Below are positions 5,866 to 22,803 of a stretch of DNA of 48,222 bases, one piece after another. The DNA comes from a bacterium (GTDB lineage Bacteria; CAIJMQ01), in NCBI GenBank assembly GCA_023135785.1, contig JAGLSL010000008.1:1-48222 (forward strand), in the 5' to 3' direction. Numbering within the stretch: position 1 is the stretch's first letter; each line of letters opens with the position of its first letter. The position numbers were made by a program, and so were the translations under genes. The notes below the pieces were generated by a model. That model was given only the letters and a program-made list of their open reading frames with translations, had not been told where the DNA came from and searched no databases.

Positions 5866-5951
5866 GCGGACGTGGCGGAATTGGTATACGCGTATGGCTT
5901 AGGACCATATCCCTTCGTGGGTTGAGAGTTCAAGTCTCTCCGTCCGCACCA
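5866..5951 (+). tRNA. tRNA-Leu (anticodon TAG), CCA encoded
   Basis: Manual cloverleaf. Acceptor GCGGACG/CGTCCGC. Anticodon stem TATGG/CCATA with loop CTTAGGA. Long variable arm. T-arm GAGAG-TTCAAGT-CTCTC. Discriminator A followed by CCA. Confidence 0.9.
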
Positions 5952-5962
5952 CAATTAGGGAT

Positions 5963-5991
5963 TTGACAGTTTAGGATTTATGGTTTATAGT
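5963..5991 (+). promoter_or_regulatory. sigma-70-type promoter candidate for tRNA-Gly (TTGACA-N17-TATAGT)
   Basis: TTGACA at 5963-5968, a 17-nt spacer, TATAGT at 5986-5991, about 55 nt upstream of the tRNA-Gly 5' end. Confidence 0.4.
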
Positions 5992-6048
5992 TGTCGTTTC
6001 CAAATCGCATACAATAGACCATACACTATAGATTATTGGTTGGTTTTT

Positions 6049-6120
6049 GCGGGTGTAGCTCAGTGGTAGAGCGTCACGTTGCCAACGTGAGGGTCACGAG
6101 TCCGAATCTCGTCGCCCGCT
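6049..6120 (+). tRNA. tRNA-Gly (anticodon GCC), no encoded CCA, unusual T-loop TCCGAAT
   Basis: Manual cloverleaf. Acceptor GCGGGTG/CGCCCGC (one G-U pair). D-arm GCTC-AGTGGTA-GAGC. Anticodon arm TCACG-TTGCCAA-CGTGA. T-arm ACGAG-TCCGAAT-CTCGT. Confidence 0.85.
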
Positions 6121-6121
6121 C

Positions 6122-6155
6122 TAATAACAACACTGATATATCAGTGTTGTTATTA
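6122..6155. repeat. perfect 34-bp palindrome directly after tRNA-Gly
   Basis: taataacaacactgata|tatcagtgttgttatta is perfectly self-complementary. It could be a processing or termination hairpin, but there is no U-tract. Confidence 0.8.
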
Positions 6156-6404
6156 CCCCGAGAGTATCGGGAAAATGTCTGTTGGAGATTTTTTCGATGG
6201 TTTACGATACGGGGTTTGCAGTGGGATATCTGCGTGATAATCACCCCGAGAGTATCGGAAAATTTCCACGAGGAAATTTCTGTAAAAATGTCTGTTGGAG
6301 ATTTTTTCGATGGTTTACGATACGGGGTTTGCAGTGGGATATCTGTGTGAAAATTACCCCGCAGAGTATCCCGAAGGTTTTCGGGATGGCTTACGATACG
6401 GGGT
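6155..6404 (+). repeat. tandem array of three ACCCCG(C)AGAGTATCG...TTACGATACGGGGT palindromic units (6155-6215, 6243-6328, 6356-6404)
   Basis: The arms are conserved and the interiors differ in length (61, 86 and 49 bp). The inter-unit spacer TTGCAGTGGGATATCTG(C/T)GTGA is also repeated. Unit 2 is nearly identical to the unit at 10340-10426. Confidence 0.85.
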
Positions 6405-6415
6405 TTATATGGTAT

Positions 6416-6456
6416 AGAAGACAGTAAACAGACAACAGATGACAGAAAAACACAGA
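6416..6456 (+). repeat. GACAGA-word repeat (copy of 41126-41166)
   Basis: agaagacagtaaacagacaacagatgacagaaaa matches cagaagacagaaaacagacgacagatgacagaaaa at the carA 3' end with 2 mismatches. Confidence 0.8.
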
Positions 6457-6467
6457 ATGGATATGCA

Positions 6468-6556
6468 ATAGAAATACGGTAGAAATACAGTGGAAATACG
6501 TAGTATAAAAACAATATATTTCGAAATATTTCTATGTATTTCAATTTATTTCTGTC
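6468..6556. repeat. GAAATA/TATTTC word hairpin upstream of tig
   Basis: Left arm aatagaaatacggtagaaatacagtggaaatacg. Right arm tatttcgaaatatttctatgtatttcaatttatttct. The 20-mer atgtatttc(a/g)atttatttct is shared with 44584-44603. Confidence 0.8.
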
Positions 6557-6572
6557 CAATAAGGAAGAATAT

Positions 6573-7811
6573 ATGCAAATAGAAGTTAAAGATTTAAAAG
6601 AGAATAAAAAATCGTTATCTATCGAAATTCCTAAGGAAGAAGTAGATAAGAAACTGGCAAAAACATATGCGACGGTTTTAACCAGCGCCGCTATCCCTGG
6701 GTTTAGAAAAGGGAAAGCTTCCTTGAAAATATTAAAGCTTTATTACGGCAAGGATATTAAAAAACAGGTTTCGGAAGAACTTGTGGACGAATATTATCAG
6801 AAAGCAATTGATGAGAAAGATTTGAGGGTGGCTCCTTCACCGGAAATCAAGGAAGTAGAAGTGGAAGAAGGCAAACCTTTGAAGTTTGAAGCTATTGTTG
6901 AGACATTTGCCAAATTTAATATAGGAGAATATAAGGGAATAGAGATTGAAAGAGAGAAATCAGAAGTTGGCGACAAAGAGATAAACGCTGTACTTGAGAG
7001 AAAACGCGAAGAACTTGCAGAGCTTATCCCTGTTAATAACCGCCCGTCTATAAAGGGGGACCTTTTAACGGCTGATTATCATATAGAAATAGACGGGAAA
7101 GTCGCAAAAGAATTAAAAAACCAAAAATTAGTATTAGGCAAAACTCCTGTTCCCAAAGGATGGGAAAAAGAATTGACCGGAGTCAAGAAAGGTGATGTTA
7201 GAGAAATCCGCGAAAAAGCCAAATCGGAAAAATCTAAAGAGGTATTGTATAAATTTGTTGTCAAGGATGTTCAGGAAAGACGACTTTTAGCCCTTGATGA
7301 TGATTTCGCGAAAAAATTGGGCGATTTCGAAAGTTTGGCTAAGGCAAGAGAAAAGATAAAGGCAGAATTGGAGAAAATGGCTCGTTTTTACGAAGAAGAA
7401 AATCTAAGAAGAACTGTCATTGATAAAATCCTTAAAAATTCCGATATTGAAGCACCTGCTTCTTTAATTAAAAGGTTTACGGATTATTATAAATCTATGA
7501 ATAAGGATATGAGCGAAGAGGAAAGCAAAAAACTGGCGGAAGAAAATATTAAGAAAGAACTGATAGTGGACGAAATTGCTAAAAAAGAAGGGATAAAAGC
7601 AACTGACGAGGAAATAAGTAGAAGAAAAAGCCAGATTACAAGAAAAGAAATTTCGCAGGAAGATATCCGGGAAGACTTGAAAAAAGAAAAAGTTTTAAAA
7701 TTTCTTATTGACAACGCAAAAATAAAAGATAAAGCAAAAAAAGCGATTATTACCCCTGAAGAAGAGAATAAACTTTCTTCGGACAAAAAAGGAAGTATCA
7801 TAATTCCTTAA
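6573..7811 (+). CDS. tig: trigger factor
   Basis: 412 aa from MQIEVKDLKENKKSLSIEIP, with RBS AAGGAAG at 6561-6567. FRKGK ribosome-binding signature (GFRKGKAS). clpP follows. The ORF-track start at 6534 lies in a repeat arm and was not used. Confidence 0.9.
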   Translation: MQIEVKDLKENKKSLSIEIPKEEVDKKLAKTYATVLTSAAIPGFRKGKASLKILKLYYGKDIKKQVSEELVDEYYQKAIDEKDLRVAPSPEIKEVEVEEGKPLKFEAIVETFAKFNIGEYKGIEIEREKSEVGDKEINAVLERKREELAELIPVNNRPSIKGDLLTADYHIEIDGKVAKELKNQKLVLGKTPVPKGWEKELTGVKKGDVREIREKAKSEKSKEVLYKFVVKDVQERRLLALDDDFAKKLGDFESLAKAREKIKAELEKMARFYEEENLRRTVIDKILKNSDIEAPASLIKRFTDYYKSMNKDMSEEESKKLAEENIKKELIVDEIAKKEGIKATDEEISRRKSQITRKEISQEDIREDLKKEKVLKFLIDNAKIKDKAKKAIITPEEENKLSSDKKGSIIIP

Positions 7812-7820
7812 AAAACTAAA

Positions 7821-8453
7821 ATGGCTTTAATTCCTATAGTTATAGAACAAACAGGCAGGATGGAAAGAGCGTATGATATCTATTCGCGACTGTTGAAAGA
7901 CAGGATAATTATGTTGGGCGTTCCCATAGACGACCATATTGCCAATGTGGTAATTGCGCAACTGTTATATTTGGAATCCGAAGACCCCAAAAAAGACATA
8001 TTTCTGTATATAAATTCACCCGGCGGGTATGCAACCGCAGGATTGGCGATATATGATACTATGCAGTTTATAAAATGCGATGTGTCTACGATATGCCTAG
8101 GGCAAGCCTCTTCTGCCGCCGCATTATTGCTTCTTGCGGGGACTAAGGACAAGCGACTGTCCTTGCCGCATAGTAGAATACTTATTCATCAGCCTTCCGG
8201 CGCTGTTCAGGGACAAGCCACAGATATTGGAATCCACGCAAAGGAAATATTAACTCTAAAGGAAAAAATGAACGAACTTATTTCTCAACATACAGGTCAA
8301 TCATTAGAGAAAGTTCAAAAAGATACTGAAAGAGATTATTTTATGAATCCCGAAGAAGCTAAAAAATATGGTATCATAGACGAAATTATTTATTCTAAGA
8401 AACCCGCCTCTTCCGGCAAAAAAGATAAGGGCGAAGGAGTTAATAAAAAATGA
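7821..8453 (+). CDS. clpP: ATP-dependent Clp protease proteolytic subunit
   Basis: 210 aa. [16 protein letters not shown] and INSPGG motifs, catalytic Ser context [11 protein letters not shown], and HQP. Short Lys-rich C-terminal tail. Confidence 0.95.
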
Positions 8454-8914
8454 AAACATTTATACTCAAAAAAGAAGCAGTTGAAAGAAAATGGTATTTA
8501 GTAGACGCCAAAGATGAAATCCTGGGAAGATTAGCATCAAGAATAGCCCTTGTTTTGCAAGGCAAGAATAAGCCCTCATATACTCCCAACGTTGATATGA
8601 GTGATTTTGTAGTGGTTATAAATGCGGAAAAAATAAAAGTTACGGGCAAAAAATTGCAAACCAAACAATACGAAAGACATTCAACCTATCCGAGCGGTTT
8701 AAAAATCGAAAAATTTGAAACATTGCTTAATACAAAGCCCGCAGAAGTGATAAAGAAAGCAGTTAAAAGAATGTTGCCCGTAAACAAATTAAGAGATAAA
8801 AGAATGAAGAAATTGAAAATTTACAAAGGTTCTGAACATCCGCATAAAAGTGTAAAAATAGAACCTATAAATCTTACCAAGAAAAGAACTAGTTCGGTTC
8901 TTGGTAAACCCTGA
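8450..8914 (+). CDS. rplM: 50S ribosomal protein L13
   Basis: 154 aa. [17 protein letters not shown]...GKNKP.YTP..D.GD.VVVINA is the canonical L13 N-terminus. ATGA overlap with the clpP stop. Confidence 0.95.
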
Positions 8915-8959
8915 ATCGTCTAAACATTATATCGGGACTGGTTTGGGGCTTACAAAATA

Positions 8960-8996
8960 CCTGCCTCGCCGAAAACGGCGATTCAAGGCGGGGAGG
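8960..8996 (+). repeat. GC-rich mini-palindrome CCTGCCTCGCC...GGCGGGGAGG in the rplM-rpsI spacer
   Basis: Same arm design as 11518-11547 (in pdxA) and 39837-39872 (in the 874-aa gene). Inner hairpin TCGCCGaaaaCGGCGA. Confidence 0.6.
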
Positions 8997-9009
8997 AGAA
9001 TTTTGTTTT

Positions 9010-9399
9010 ATGGAAAATAAAGTTAATACTACAGGAAGAAGAAAAGAAGCAGTTGCAAAAGTTTTTCTTTCCTTGGGAACAGGCAATATCGTCATAAACG
9101 GCAAAAGATTGGACGAATATTTCCCACTATCGAACCTTCAGGCAAGAGTTCTTGCCCCACTTGAAGTTACTGAAAATCTAAAGCTATATGATGTAAAAAT
9201 TAAGGTGCTCGGTGGAGGTATTTCAGGACAAGCCGGTGCAGCTGCGCTTGGTATTGCCCGCGCCCTAGTTGAAACAGACGAAAAATTTAGAGCTACGCTT
9301 AAGAAAAAAGGCTTATTAAAAAGAGATCCTCGAATGGTAGAGAGAAAAAAATATGGCCGAAGAAAAGCTCGTAAAAGCCCCCAATACTCCAAACGATAA
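9010..9399 (+). CDS. rpsI: 30S ribosomal protein S9
   Basis: 129 aa. GRRKEAVA...GGG.SGQAGA...GIARAL, ending in RRKARKSPQYSKR. Confidence 0.95.
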   Translation: MENKVNTTGRRKEAVAKVFLSLGTGNIVINGKRLDEYFPLSNLQARVLAPLEVTENLKLYDVKIKVLGGGISGQAGAAALGIARALVETDEKFRATLKKKGLLKRDPRMVERKKYGRRKARKSPQYSKR

Positions 9400-9673
9400 A
9401 GGGGAAATTGTTGTTGTTAGTGTTCTCGGTAATGAAATTAGATTAAGAACACAAGCCGGTTCGGATTATATTCATAAGTTAACCGAAGATATTGAAAACA
9501 GAATAAAATGCTGTATGAGCGATTCGGGCATTATGTCTTCCCTGAAAGCGGTGATTTTAGTATGCCTTGACCTTGCGGACGAATTGGAAAAGCAAAAGAA
9601 ACAGCATTCCAAAAAAGACAAGTCTTGTGAAGAAAGAATAGATAAACTAATCAATAAAATTTCCGCAGTTTAA
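9353..9673 (+). CDS. zapA: cell division protein ZapA
   Basis: 106 aa. V.VLGNEIRLRT....DYIHKLTEDIENRI....S....KAVILVCLDLADEL fits the ZapA pattern. The only in-frame ATG overlaps rpsI by 47 nt. Confidence 0.6.
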   Translation: MAEEKLVKAPNTPNDKGEIVVVSVLGNEIRLRTQAGSDYIHKLTEDIENRIKCCMSDSGIMSSLKAVILVCLDLADELEKQKKQHSKKDKSCEERIDKLINKISAV

Positions 9674-9798
9674 TTCTAACGCATAGAAATGCGTTAGAAT
9701 TACCCCGCAGAGTATCGAAAAAATATCGAAGACCCAGGGTATTATTAACAATGGGGCGAGAGATTTTTTTGATGTTTTACGATACGGGGTTTCGTTGA
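9672..9798 (+). repeat. 127-bp direct repeat, copy A (30-bp palindrome AATTCTAACGCAtagaaaTGCGTTAGAATT plus an ACCCCG...CGGGGT unit at 9702-9790)
   Basis: Base-for-base identical to 10193-10319. Begins inside the zapA stop codon. Confidence 0.9.
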
Positions 9799-9818
9799 AA
9801 TAGAAATACGTTCCGTTT

Positions 9819-9973
9819 ACCCCGTTTAGAGATTTTACGTCGAATAGAACCCTTTACTTAAATAGAAGTATAAAAGGTAATTACGGAAGAAAATTTTTAC
9901 GAATAAGTTACACTCCGACAACGATACGCCGGAGTTATCCCCGCCTTGCCGTCGAGACAGGTCTAACAGGGGT
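9819..9973 (+). repeat. degenerate ACCCCGTTTAGAGAT...GTCTAACAGGGGT element
   Basis: Arms related to the 19881 and 22676 elements. An internal hairpin (CTCCGacaacgatacgcCGGAG) precedes the right arm. The right arm abuts the -35 box of the 6S-like RNA promoter. Confidence 0.5.
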
Positions 9974-10000
9974 TTACAATCCAATTTTGCGTGTTATAAT
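9973..10000 (+). promoter_or_regulatory. strong sigma-70-type promoter: TTTACA-N16-TGT-TATAAT (extended -10)
   Basis: TTTACA at 9973-9978, TG at 9992-9993, TATAAT at 9995-10000. A G at 10008 lies 7-8 nt downstream. Confidence 0.6.
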
Positions 10001-10007
10001 AAGTCAA

Positions 10008-10187
10008 GGCTCTGGGATATACGTGATGGAATAAATGGAATCTTGAGCCAAATAGTTAAAAAGGGAATTCTACTTTGGGTAAAGCGTGTACGTCCCGATG
10101 TAATGTCGGGAAAACACAAACTATTCAAGGGAATACCCACTTTGTAAAGCAGCTTTAAGATTCCTGTCCCACACGGTATCTTGGGGC
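10008..10187 (+). ncRNA. ssrS: candidate 6S RNA
   Basis: 180 nt starting 7-8 nt after a near-consensus promoter. The 5' end GCUCUGGGAUAUACGUG pairs with the 3' end CACACGGUAUCUUGGGGC, followed by UUUUU. A second helix forms between GGAAUCUU and AAGAUUCC. The centre is largely unpaired, and the apical hairpin is GUGU-acg-UCCCGAuguaaugUCGGGA-aa-ACAC. UGAGCC on the 5' side and UUCAAGGG on the 3' side resemble elements I recall in E. coli 6S RNA. Location downstream of zapA matches the E. coli zapA-ssrS arrangement. Confidence 0.55.
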
Positions 10188-10192
10188 TTTTT

Positions 10193-10319
10193 AATTCTAA
10201 CGCATAGAAATGCGTTAGAATTACCCCGCAGAGTATCGAAAAAATATCGAAGACCCAGGGTATTATTAACAATGGGGCGAGAGATTTTTTTGATGTTTTA
10301 CGATACGGGGTTTCGTTGA
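10193..10319 (+). repeat. 127-bp direct repeat, copy B
   Basis: Identical to 9672-9798. Followed at 10321-10339 by half of the TGCGTTAGAATT palindrome and then another unit. Confidence 0.9.
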
Positions 10320-10339
10320 TATAGAAATGCGTTAGAATT

Positions 10340-10426
10340 ACCCCGCAGAGTATCGGAAAATTTCCACGAGGAAATTTCTGTAAAAATGTCTGTTGGAGAT
10401 TTTTTCGATAGTTTACGATACGGGGT
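10340..10426 (+). repeat. ACCCCGCAGAGTATCGG...TTTACGATACGGGGT unit (near-copy of 6243-6328)
   Basis: Same interior as unit 2 of the array after tRNA-Gly, including the hairpin GAAATTTCCacgaGGAAATTTC, with 1-2 differences. Confidence 0.85.
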
Positions 10427-10536
10427 GATTAAATTCTTCATTCCTTTAAATACAATTTCAAAAATCAAATTATAAAGTGTAGAATAGTACGCTTACTAAT
10501 GAGAGCACTTTATACTTAACATTTCATACGTGAGCT

Positions 10537-10681
10537 GTCATTCCTGCATGTAGTAAGCAGGAATCCAGTCTTTCGTCATGAATAGATTCGTCCCCAAGTG
10601 TTTCTATTGGGGATAAAAATCCCCGATTACTGCATTCGGGGGCAGGCTATTCGGGAATGACAAAAGAGGGGCGGGAATGAC
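10537..10681. repeat. GTCATTCC...GGGAATGAC palindromic element with internal hairpins
   Basis: Left end GTCATTCCTGCatgtagtaaGCAGGAATCC. Right end CGGGAATGACA occurs twice (10653-10661 and 10673-10681). Internal hairpin TCCCCAagtgtttctaTTGGGGA. Confidence 0.7.
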
Positions 10682-10746
10682 ACACAATGTAAAGTACTTT
10701 CTGTCCTCCTTAGTAATATCAATAGTATTAACATATAAAAAAATAT

Positions 10747-11763
10747 ATGCTGCCAATTATTGGAATAACGATGGGCGACCCTGCCGGAATAGGCGGAGAA
10801 ATTATCATAAAATCTCTCAAACAAAAAGCCCTGCGCTCAAAGTATTGTCCCGTTATTATCGGTGATTTTTCCTATTTGAAACTCCTCATAAAAAAACTTT
10901 CTAGTCCCTTAAAAATAACCAGTATAAATAAAATTAAAGACAGAAAATCCTTACCCATTGACGCAGTCCCCATAATTGACCTGAAAAATTTGGAAAATAA
11001 AAAAATAAAGTTTGGAATATGTGACACTGGTTGCGGGAAAGCTTCTTACGAATATATAGCCAAAGCCATAGAATTAGCTTCTTACGGATTTATTGACGCG
11101 ATTGTTACAGCCCCCATAAACAAAGAAAGTTTTCATAAAGCACATATACCTTATACCGGACATACGGAAATGTTGGCTAAACTTACAAAAACGAAAAATT
11201 TCGCAATGATGCTCGTAGGCGGAAAATTAAGAGTCGTATTAGTGACAAGACATATCCCCATTAAAAATGTTTCAAAAAAATTAACTGAAGAAAAAGTTTT
11301 CACAGCTATAAAACTTGCCCACAATGCAGGTAAATATTTCAATATCACTAAACCAATAATAGGCATCTGTGGACTTAATCCTCATAGCGGCGAAGGTGGA
11401 ACTATAGGAGATGAAGAGATTAAAATAATTATACCCGCAATCAAGAAATCCAAAAAAACGGGAATAAACGCGATGGGACCATATGCTTCGGATACTATTT
11501 TTTATAAAGCTTTAAAACCTGCCCGCCAAAGTTTGTCAGGCGGGGGAAACTATGATTTTGTTGTTGCAATGTTCCACGACCAAGGACTTATACCTTTAAA
11601 AGCGCTTTATTTTGACGAAGGGGTAAACGTTACCTTGGGATTGCCTTTTATCCGAACCTCGCCCGACCACGGTACGGCTTATGATATTGCAGGAAAAGGC
11701 ATCGCAAATCCTAAAAGTATGCAGGAAGCGATAAAATTAGCTGTAAAAATGAGCCGTATTTAA
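10747..11763 (+). CDS. pdxA: 4-hydroxythreonine-4-phosphate dehydrogenase
   Basis: 338 aa. GITMGDPAGIGGEII, GHTEMLA, MFHDQGLIPLK and LPFIRTSPDHGTAYDIAGKG motifs. Confidence 0.9.
   Translation: MLPIIGITMGDPAGIGGEIIIKSLKQKALRSKYCPVIIGDFSYLKLLIKKLSSPLKITSINKIKDRKSLPIDAVPIIDLKNLENKKIKFGICDTGCGKASYEYIAKAIELASYGFIDAIVTAPINKESFHKAHIPYTGHTEMLAKLTKTKNFAMMLVGGKLRVVLVTRHIPIKNVSKKLTEEKVFTAIKLAHNAGKYFNITKPIIGICGLNPHSGEGGTIGDEEIKIIIPAIKKSKKTGINAMGPYASDTIFYKALKPARQSLSGGGNYDFVVAMFHDQGLIPLKALYFDEGVNVTLGLPFIRTSPDHGTAYDIAGKGIANPKSMQEAIKLAVKMSRI
11518..11547 (+). repeat. GC-rich mini-palindrome CCTGCCCGCCaaagtttgtcaGGCGGGGGA, in frame inside pdxA
   Basis: Encodes PARQSLSGGG in a loop that, from my memory of E. 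coli PdxA, is about 9 aa longer here (between DT.F and AM.HDQGL). Confidence 0.6.
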
Positions 11764-19880: not shown

Positions 19881-20006
19881 ACCCCGTTAGAGATTAAAGA
19901 GAAAAAAATATAATTCATCTCAATAATTAGGAGACAAAAAGAGAATGTATGTAAATATTAAACTGTGATTTACGGTAGCCTTATGGCTACCTATCTCTAA
20001 CGGGGT
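19881..20006. repeat. ACCCCGTTAGAGAT...ATCTCTAACGGGGT element (126 bp, perfect 14-bp terminal inverted repeats)
   Basis: Arms at 19881-19894 and 19993-20006. A-rich interior ends with the hairpin GGTAGCCttatGGCTACC just before the right arm. Confidence 0.85.
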
Positions 20007-21863: not shown

Positions 21864-22685
21864 ATGAATAATTTTGGGTTGGAATTTTTAAAGGTGTCCG
21901 GAACTGGTAACGACTTCATCATAGTTATAAATGTAGAAAATAAATATAACTATGAATGGTCCAGTCTGGCAAAAAATCTATGCAGGCGTCACCTATCTAT
22001 AGGAGCAGATGGGCTTATCGTATTGGAAACTTCTCTCAAAGCAAATGCCAGAATGAGAATATTTAATTCTGACGGGAGCGAAGCAGAGATGTGCGGTAAT
22101 GCAGCGCGCTGTTCTGCGCGGGTTCTTGTGCATAAAAAACTAACTATCCCAGGTGAAGTTAGTCTGGAAACACTCTCCGGAATTATCACGGCACAGGTAA
22201 AAGAGGATACAGTGAAAATAAAAATGACACCACCACATAGTTTCAAGGAAGAGATACATATAAAAATTGATGGCACGGATTATATCGGAAGTTTTATTAA
22301 TACAGGCGTCCCTCATGCTGTTTTTTTAACTGACGACATAAATAAAATAGACTTACTTGAGATTGCGCCTAAAATCAGAAATAATGAACAGTTTCAGCCG
22401 GAAGGAACAAATGTCAACTTTGTGCAAATCCTAGATAATAATTCAATGTCCATCCGCACATATGAAAGAGGAGTGGAAGACGAAACCTATGCATGCGGCA
22501 CAGGCGCCGTTGCTTCAAGTATCGTAAATTTTATAAAAGGCAACTTAAAAACAAACCTTATAAAAGTGCAAACAAAAGGCGGAGAATTAACTGTTTCCAT
22601 AGAAGGGACACCCGATAAAATAGAAAATATTTACCTTGCCAGTCCCGTTGAAATAATTTATTCAGCAAAAATTTCACCCCGTTAG
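21864..22685 (+). CDS. dapF: diaminopimelate epimerase
   Basis: 273 aa. SGTGNDFIIV and both catalytic Cys contexts (MCGNAARC, ACGTGAVAS). The last 3 codons and the stop lie in a repeat arm. Confidence 0.9.
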   Translation: MNNFGLEFLKVSGTGNDFIIVINVENKYNYEWSSLAKNLCRRHLSIGADGLIVLETSLKANARMRIFNSDGSEAEMCGNAARCSARVLVHKKLTIPGEVSLETLSGIITAQVKEDTVKIKMTPPHSFKEEIHIKIDGTDYIGSFINTGVPHAVFLTDDINKIDLLEIAPKIRNNEQFQPEGTNVNFVQILDNNSMSIRTYERGVEDETYACGTGAVASSIVNFIKGNLKTNLIKVQTKGGELTVSIEGTPDKIENIYLASPVEIIYSAKISPR

Positions 22686-22803
22686 AGATTAATTTAATAG
22701 AAAAAGTTTAGGCTTTACCAAAGTTTTAAAGCTAAAAACAGGGAAAGAAAACCTTGGGAGTATGACAGAAATGTCAAAAGACATTTCTTATCTCTAACGG
22801 GGT
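22676..22803. repeat. ACCCCGTTAGAGAT...ATCTCTAACGGGGT element (128 bp)
   Basis: Arms at 22676-22689 and 22790-22803 are identical to those of the 19881 element. The interior is unrelated but has the same layout, with the hairpin AGAAATGTCaaaaGACATTTCT before the right arm. The left arm supplies the dapF stop codon. Confidence 0.85.

Follow-up and report, generated by a model that had tools for sequence, protein, structure and literature searches.

Enterobacterial bacterial interspersed mosaic elements (BIMEs) and the very small nested repeats of cyanobacteria are intergenic mosaics of short palindromic modules, one nested in another. Miniature derivatives of the IS200/IS605 family exist, and attC sites consist of conserved closing arms around a free interior, with the boxes RYYYAAC and GTTRRRY. 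The spacers of REPINs all form hairpins between conserved inverted arms, no two spacers being identical (PMC3337134); REP sequences (repetitive extragenic palindromes) are tagged at one end of the palindrome by an unpaired GTAG (or CGTC) (PMC3733652); the Streptococcus BOX element (boxA - boxB(n) - boxC) has a central module that varies in number, shows length differences between strains and takes part in mutual insertion (PMC3049150); and IS608 has subterminal hairpins and inserts 3' of TTAC without gaining or losing DNA, guide pairing next to the hairpin foot serving to read the tetranucleotide that is targeted or cleaved (PMC3201880). The repeat described here was found in a stretch of 48,222 nt (the window: positions 1 to 48,222, forward strand, of contig JAGLSL010000008.1, assembly GCA_023135785.1) from a bacterium of the lineage CAIJMQ01, whose genome (G000; 1.34 Mb in 104 contigs, 37% G+C, rated 96% complete) belongs to a family-level lineage, f1, represented by five genomes (G000 to G004). 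Six copies, called units 1 to 6 here, lie on the + strand at 6155-6215, 6243-6328, 6356-6404, 9702-9790, 10223-10311 and 10340-10426. These units are probably the core of a lineage-specific, non-autonomous, hairpin-forming mobile repeat that resembles REPINs, BOX elements and miniatures of the IS200/IS605 family.

A preliminary description of the window had listed the six units as copies with conserved arms, and all of them were found where it placed them. The right arm CGATACGGGGT occurs six times against 0.24 expected from shuffles, and the left arm ACCCCGCAGAGTATC four times against 0.02 expected, units 1 and 2 having the form without the C (ACCCCGAGAGTATC). These counts rule out chance as the source of the six units. 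The pairing first proposed fared less well. Every unit had been given a GTATCG arm that pairs with CGATAC around a CAGA bulge; unit 3 has GTATCC, and minimum-energy folding yields this stem in one of the five distinct window units, the other distinct units pairing TATCGG... with ...CGATG and leaving ACGAUA unpaired. Of the 67 family members, no more than 8 have the CGATAC right arm, namely the six copies of the window and two in G002, and most have CGTTGC instead; that pairing is therefore a local peculiarity, and the window copies form a local subfamily.

The fold common to the whole family consists of a stem P1 (ACCCCGCA/TGCGGGGT), an asymmetric internal loop, a second stem P2 (ATCGGAAAAAT/ATTTTTCCGAT) and a variable tip. 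The loop sets GAGT on the left against G-N-N-TTACGT on the right and contains most invariant alignment columns. The two arms are imperfect inverted repeats, which have ACCCCGCA and ATCGGAAAAAT in common and differ by GAGT versus ACGTAAGAC. In the unfitted MAFFT alignment, pairing cells amount to 91.1%, compared with 84.2% in shuffles and 38-55% with slid partners, and seven pairs are changed on both sides. The covariation score of 0.228, against 0.115 in shuffles, was reached by none of 500 shuffles. In a larger set, compensatory changes from C-G to U-A are seen at P1 position 2 in 14 copies and from G-C to C-G at two positions of P2 in 13 copies each. Both stems covary. The covariation analysis suggested in the preliminary description has thus revealed covarying stems, but the conserved ones are P1 and P2, not GTATCG/CGATAC.

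The genome-wide census and alignment suggested there place the units in a larger family. A covariance model (R1) made from a MAFFT alignment of 25 copies detected 67 forward copies (a lower bound, as detailed below) in all five f1 genomes (18, 12, 22, 6 and 9, the 18 being those of G000), all of them intergenic. None was detected in 36 other genomes, four of which belong to the same class, among the 86-150 first-look candidates (of about 1,600) scored per genome, and a strict arm-pattern search of the other genomes gave no copies either. Exact arms are nearly confined to the window; looser searches gave diverged copies on other contigs of G000. The element is asymmetric, since R1 scores range from 29 to 83 bits for the forward copies versus 26 to 33 bits on the reverse strand. 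In metagenome contigs, a 20-nt arm pattern matched at 26 loci, 21 with a full unit and five by chance inside unrelated sequence. Viral contigs gave no match. Rfam, the other resource proposed for a search with the arms, gave nothing: at gathering scores only 6S RNA and three tRNAs match in the whole window, and at E<=1 the sole match over a unit within 5950-10700 scores 20.8 bits against a cut-off of 85. A 14-nt arm pattern was set aside, because its single matches in a wider genome collection (at least 120, in unrelated taxa) are of the number expected by chance. The family is thus seen in one family-level lineage, across two genera.

The unit is part of a composite, in which a hairpin with a TAAT...ATTA foot (hpA), the unit and often a third hairpin (hpC) follow one another. 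TTAAT stands at the left of the composite and often holds the stop codon of the upstream gene; by crude calls of open reading frames (ORFs), an upstream ORF on the same strand ends in the TAA of TTAAT in 18 of the 67 copies. A perfect hairpin of at least 6 bp ends on the first base of the unit in 47 of 67 copies, and 41 of these 47 hpA feet start with TAAT and end with ATTA, which pair with each other over many different stem sequences; the stem sequence is free. The unit is followed by a short T(T/C)AT tail, and hpC, where present, ends in GATTCAT, so that the composite begins with TAATCGG... and ends with ...GATTCAT. On other contigs of G000, six units are followed by the hpC hairpin (AAACCCCGTGCTTTAGCACGGGGAGATTCAT), the one on C35 being truncated, and hpC also occurs by itself twice more in that genome.

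The conserved closing arms and the very variable, hairpin-forming interiors of the preliminary description are borne out, and so is its view that the units are more than simple REP elements. What it called freely variable interiors are nested copies of other small palindromes at the hairpin tip, together with insertions and deletions. There are 50-nt units with a CCCGACGTTACGTCGGG tip, basic forms of 60 nt and 64 nt, units of 85-94 nt with a CCCTGCCCGC...GCAGGCGGGG hairpin, and units of 124-188 nt with a 65-nt two-hairpin module, which in some cases itself contains another insert. This module is found in unit tips of all five genomes and in both orientations, and BLAST also locates it in G000 at more than 10 other places that are not part of a unit. 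It consists of a CCCTCTGGAATTT... hairpin and a CCCGGGAATTC... hairpin and is a repeat family of its own, which occurs in units or alone (loci L126, L180, L191, L196, L199 and L206; contigs C2, C29, C32, C44 and others).

Mobility is suggested by comparison among the five genomes, where the composite is present or absent as a block of 120-230 nt between flanks that are 81-97% identical. Six filled and empty sites were compared:

C8: filled in G000, empty in G001; 121 nt.
C37: filled in G000, empty in G001; about 125 nt.
C49: filled in G000, empty in G001; 203 nt.
C53: filled in G000, empty in G001; 122 nt.
Unit-4 site of the window: filled in G000, empty in G001.
One site of the reverse kind: filled in G001, empty in G000.

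In five of the six comparisons, TTAAT is found exactly at the left junction in the empty allele and the composite lies directly 3' of it, and in none of the six is there a target duplication. C53 is also empty in the outgroup G003, indicating an insertion in the line of G000. At C33, G001 retains hpA alone. Truncated or short forms occur on contigs C35, C42, C58, C62 and C70 and after tRNA-Gly in G003. The spacer between tRNA-Gly and tig holds three units in G000 and a single one in G001; G003 has a truncated short form there, and G002 and G004 have no unit. On the 3' side of the 6S RNA gene, G000 has two units, G001 has one, G002 has one with a different tip type, and G003 lacks any. Unit 4 and the element next to it are missing from the orthologous site in G001, G003 and G004, and G002 has a different 391-nt stretch there with no forward-oriented unit. 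At the C9 locus, G001, G002 and G004 show the standard order of gene stop, hpA and unit, whereas in G000 the interior is inverted exactly between the 7-bp arms ACCCCGC and GCGGGGT with identical flanks; a unit can thus invert between its 7-bp arms. Several copies are found at the same loci in both genera, where the arms are 83-97% identical and the flanks 68-83%, unless the unit type has been swapped. Because the family is gained, lost, duplicated and in one case flipped among close genomes, it looks like miniature mobile DNA rather than functional RNA.

The loci of the window illustrate these events, and their features, all on the + strand, are as follows:

6049..6121, + strand: tRNA-Gly(GCC), for context; the array starts right after it, and the encoded 3' CCA is CTA here.
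6122..6155, + strand: hpA hairpin of unit 1, TAATAACAACACTG / CAGTGTTGTTATTA; perfect stem of 14 bp, the final A being the first base of unit 1.
6155..6215, + strand: unit 1, 61 nt; covariance model score 67.2 bits.
6216..6242, + strand: spacer, whose 3' part GGGATATCTGCGTGATAATC matches the right half of the hpA that G001 carries at the same locus.
6243..6328, + strand: unit 2, 86 nt; unit 1 plus a 25-nt hairpin insert; 57.7 bits by the covariance model.
6329..6355, + strand: spacer, a duplicate of 6216-6242.
6356..6404, + strand: unit 3, 49 nt, of the short CCCGAAGGTTTTCGGG tip type; covariance model score 57.2 bits.
9671..9702, + strand: hpA hairpin of unit 4, TAATTCTAACGCAT / ATGCGTTAGAATTA; TAA at 9671-9673 is the stop codon of the ORF 9353-9673.
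9702..9790, + strand: unit 4, 89 nt, identical to unit 5.
9669..9824, + strand: copy 1 of a 156-nt segmental duplication, made of hpA, unit, half a hairpin and ACCCCG; copy 2, 96% identical, is at 10190-10345.
9819..9973, + strand: neighbouring ACCCCGTTAGAGAT element with inverted terminal repeats, 155 nt, for context; absent in G001.
10006..10191, + strand: 6S RNA, for context (RF00013, 95.6 bits); an RNA-library contig spans 10008-10191.
10192..10223, + strand: hpA hairpin of unit 5, directly 3' of the T-run of 6S RNA.
10223..10311, + strand: unit 5, 89 nt; 72.7 bits by the covariance model.
10312..10340, + strand: spacer holding the 3' half of hpA only (ATAGAAATGCGTTAGAATTA).
10340..10426, + strand: unit 6, 87 nt; covariance model score 65.1 bits.

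An hpA hairpin precedes the first unit of each array and is part of the element. The three-unit tandem array noticed earlier after tRNA-Gly begins 34 nt past the end of the tRNA gene, and its unit 3 is of the same type as the single unit of G001 at this locus. Three genomes have an element after this gene, and in them the encoded 3' CCA of tRNA-Gly is CTA or CTG, whereas it is CCA in the two genomes without a unit there; the insertion seems to have overwritten the encoded CCA. Among the 57 loci scanned, linkage to tRNA genes is otherwise limited to two cases: in G001, tRNA-His has a unit 34 nt upstream, and a tRNA-Ser has one at a distance of about 240 nt. Units 4, 5 and 6 flank the 6S RNA gene on its two sides. 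The leader that the preliminary description saw shared between two places is real: it is the 156-nt duplication, which ends at ACCCCG and continues with TTTAGAGAT in one copy and CAGAGTATC in the other. One leader copy runs into the ACCCCGTTTAGAGAT element and the other into unit 6, so that the proposed link between the units and the second (ACCCCGTTAGAGAT) family is seen in the window as physical linkage. Although about 4 kb separates them, units 2 and 6 share 98.75% identity over 80 nt. Local multiplication has thus occurred by tandem and segmental duplication.

Two DNA sequencing runs touch on these arrangements. Run X8 reproduces that of G001; because it may be the source of G001 itself, it gives no independent support. 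In run X4, a contig joins the 3' end of 6S RNA (10192) via 19 other letters to a unit of the unit-3 type (side 52), which hints at yet another unit type 3' of 6S RNA; its match is 88%, so the contig may come from a relative or from a repeat.

Other repeats lie around the units. The ACCCCGTTAGAGAT family is far more abundant than the units, both in the window (9819-9973, 19881-20006 and 22676-22803) and genome-wide, with 135 termini at no more than two mismatches and at least 44 paired elements with 14-bp inverted ends. Its elements fall into size classes of 33, 73, about 104, 122-134 and about 155 nt, with conserved ends and variable interiors. ACCCCG as such occurs 427 times against about 185 expected. 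At 10495-10738, a stretch of about 242 nt with GTCATTCC...GGGAATGAC motifs is skipped in the G001-like run X8 and has depths of 155 and 259 in DNA runs X1 and X4 versus about 10 around it; this excess of 15-25 times marks it as another repeat or mobile insertion. Upstream of tig, the AT-rich segment 6405-6560 contains iterated TAGAAATAC motifs facing GTATTTC motifs. A purine-rich repeat of the GACAGA type is shared with G001 and G002, and C35 has a similar TAGAAAT block.

If the units are the core of a mobile repeat, the element would move as folded single-stranded DNA, on which a hairpin-recognising enzyme would act in trans. We infer a link to HUH enzymes from the anatomy of the composite, namely its subterminal hairpins, fixed left flank, lack of inverted terminal repeats and lack of target duplication. 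The best candidate would be a RAYT-type or IS200-type HUH/Y1 transposase that acts in the manner of IS608. Any influence on transcripts, for instance through their 3'-end structure or the context of the stop codon, would be incidental or co-opted later. A more specific proposal is that the composite represents a new kind of HUH-type miniature transposon. In such an element, the TTAAT target, often the stop codon of the gene itself, would pair with the ATTA of the element to become the foot of the left hairpin; the conserved asymmetric loop of the right-end hairpin would serve the enzyme as a handle; and the tip of the right-end hairpin would readily accept the landing of other palindromic elements. 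We regard this detailed scheme as quite unlikely to hold. If it were true, persistence in two genera without a linked transposase would imply either an unrecognised mobilising enzyme or domestication as a 3' structure that abuts stop codons.

G000 has four RAYT-like Y1 genes, which score 58.7-82.3 bits to NF047646 (cut-off 80) and are located on C31, C33, C38 and C60 (loci L166, L170, L171 and L168). The Y1 gene on C38 is flanked by CCCACCTCSGAGGTGGG hairpins, found at about 18 places, and looks like part of a classical REP-RAYT pair, while that on C60 has a tail like the DnaA C-terminal helix-turn-helix. The one IS605-type element of the f1 family, in G002, was rejected as a parent, its ends being unrelated to the units. 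The sole pair of ACCCCGTTAGAGAT ends lying 400-5000 nt apart was likewise rejected as an autonomous parent, since it encloses a murJ-like gene; on C20 (4962-6792) the murJ-like gene forms two adjacent open frames of 221 and 305 aa between ACCCCGTTAGAGAT-type ends.

Several observations, the unrelated ends of the IS605-type element among them, weigh against a mobile repeat. No unit lies within 1.5 kb of any of seven Y1 genes in G000, G002 and G003, whose flanks carry inverted repeats other than the units, and the Y1 search gave no match in G001 (92% complete, 10 contigs) or G004, both of which have units. No autonomous version was found, and no arm pair encloses an ORF. Copy number is low, at 6-22 per genome, although with 86-150 of about 1,600 first-look candidates scored per genome the census is a lower bound. 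The junctions are not uniform: one of the six left junctions, that of the reverse case, is without AAT, and the right junctions are near GATTCAT but not clean, the empty alleles having 2-14 nt extra and, at the unit-4 site, 28 nt. The direction of change, gain versus loss, is established at the C53 site only. The conservation of arms between orthologous copies would also be expected if a host function were under purifying selection or if copies homogenised one another. At 21 of 25 loci or contigs the unit is on the G-rich strand, the inverted copy being among the exceptions, and since this strand is also coding-rich, effects of replication and transcription are inseparable. The ORF calls behind the gene contexts are crude, being the longest ORFs of at least 90 aa.

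Part of this evidence bears equally on a function in RNA. The units might be host cis-acting RNA, that is, hairpins at mRNA 3' ends, between cistrons or on stable RNAs that would resist exonucleases, mark processing or tune termination, with the loop as a protein-binding site. Such action is reported for REP and BOX elements (PMC3733652, PMC3049150). Consistently, the upstream stop codon falls within the hairpin foot in the 18 copies mentioned above, and among the 67 copies the neighbouring genes are both on the strand of the unit in 30 cases and both on the opposite strand in 14 (divergent, 9; convergent, 5; unassigned, 9). The unpaired GAGT and TTACG are the most conserved positions, both stems covary, and orthologous arms are conserved as much as coding flanks or more. 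Because there is no predicted terminator from the promoter-like site of tRNA-Gly (5963-5991) to tig, units 1-3 are probably read through. However, two neighbours were called for 58 copies, and of these 14 are antisense to both and another 14 fall between genes that diverge or converge; copies appear and disappear among genomes that are 81-97% identical, and one has been inverted in place. G-U pairs are not in excess over A-C once one near-invariant T-G pair is set aside (18 versus 17 in the alignment and 49 versus 40 in the larger set), and the folding advantage of the + strand, -3.08 kcal/mol on average, is matched by -2.78 in composition-matched shuffles; neither the pair counts nor the strand asymmetry gives a signal of RNA-level selection beyond base composition. 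There is also no Rfam match, a terminator scan of the window called no unit terminator-like, and no common function was obvious in the flanking genes, which were looked at in passing without systematic annotation. RNA library X13, which consists of contigs from a related strain, has one of 184 nt, at depth 2423, that spans 10008-10191 and corresponds to 6S RNA. A strong site resembling a promoter (11 of 12 matches, with TG) lies at 9973-10000, before the 6S RNA. The library is uninformative on whether the units are transcribed: 10309-10800 is without cover, and the single joint within the tRNA-Gly/tig spacer, from 6248 to 6363, has depth 5.1 and a shorter side of 20 letters. None of the tests favoured a role in RNA. 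Neither a strand-specific function of that kind nor the structured-RNA scaffold suggested in the preliminary description is supported, and we judge a host cis-RNA role unlikely.

Site-specific recombination, also suggested at the outset, would make the arms recombinase sites, either a folded site like attC or an invertible switch, and the interior a tolerated spacer. The exact inversion of one unit between ACCCCGC and GCGGGGT with unchanged flanks fits this, as do the nested 65-nt module in both orientations within units and a design that resembles that of attC. But a single inversion was seen among about 12 orthologous sets, and a quasi-palindrome can also be inverted by template switching without a recombinase; the arms lack the RYYYAAC/GTTRRRY boxes when compared by eye with the attC consensus; and the array units lie 27-28 nt apart with no cassette ORFs between them, recombinases not having been searched for. 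Recombinase sites are accordingly a very unlikely account of the units. The units could also be host hairpins that do not transpose, such as terminator-like structures or sites for nucleoid proteins, and that spread by duplication, slippage and gene conversion only. The tandem and segmental duplications, the near-identical units at two loci about 4 kb apart, a structural turnover within loci that is much faster than in the flanks (C42 versus G001), the low copy number and the absence of a linked transposase are in line with such an origin. It does not readily account for block insertions of 120-230 nt at unrelated single-copy loci with TTAAT at the left junction in five of six cases, or for the site where the outgroup confirms the empty state as ancestral; gene conversion, moreover, requires a pre-existing homologous copy at the recipient site. 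Spread without transposition is thus very unlikely. As for dead miniature inverted-repeat transposable elements (MITEs), whose decay the preliminary description named as the contrary pattern, the truncated and short forms agree with it, but the orientation of the units is biased rather than random, though not uniform. A mobile repeat remains the probable explanation.

Small-genome uncultivated lineages are usually assumed to be streamlined. This lineage, with a genome of about 1.4 Mb, nonetheless keeps several interacting families of miniature palindromic repeats, which nest in each other's hairpin tips. The filled and empty sites, the lone left hairpin, the short forms, the tandem arrays and the in-place inversion make up an unusually clean natural series, which could show how hairpin repeats without a linked transposase move and persist, and in what way they remodel the 3' ends of genes and the sequences beside stable RNA genes (such as tRNA-Gly and 6S RNA). 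On the practical side, the units break short-read assemblies; Logan contigs of run X1 stop at units.

The likeness to REPINs lies in two conserved inverted arms around a spacer that always folds and varies in length and sequence, in the extragenic position and largely vertical inheritance of the units within the lineage, and in the presence of RAYT-like genes in G000. Unlike those of REPINs, however, the arms of the units are not themselves palindromic REPs; of the 67 copies, 3 have GTAG in the left arm and 7 have CGTC in the right arm, the unit consensus being GCAG (left) and CGTT (right). Units flank none of the RAYT genes, two unit-bearing genomes are without a Y1 match, there are tens of copies and not hundreds, and the units have an extra left hairpin and a fixed TTAAT left flank. 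The resemblance to BOX is one of architecture only, with terminal modules that pair and a variable centre that leaves the fold intact. In the units, the centre is made of different palindromes nested at the tip of a hairpin and not of one module in tandem, and while the terminal inverted repeats of BOX are proposed to match ISSpn2, the ends of the composite are not mutual inverted repeats.

In common with the IS200/IS605 family, the composite lies directly 3' of a fixed TTAAT that is kept at the left flank without target duplication (five of six comparisons), has hairpins at both ends (hpA on the left, the unit or hpC on the right) and no terminal inverted repeats, shows a strand bias (here inseparable from coding direction), and has a target that pairs with element sequence beside a hairpin foot. 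It differs in that the target TAAT is the hairpin foot itself and not 19 nt away, in its imprecise right junctions, which vary by 2-28 nt, and in the lack of a linked cognate TnpA. In contrast to attC arrays, the array units have no ORF in the 27-28 nt between them, and no search for an integron integrase was made. With BIMEs and the nested repeats of cyanobacteria, the units share the character of palindromic mosaics with nesting. Compared with the literature on known repeat classes, the units are thus filed as a new family within a known kind, the small non-autonomous palindromic mosaic repeats.

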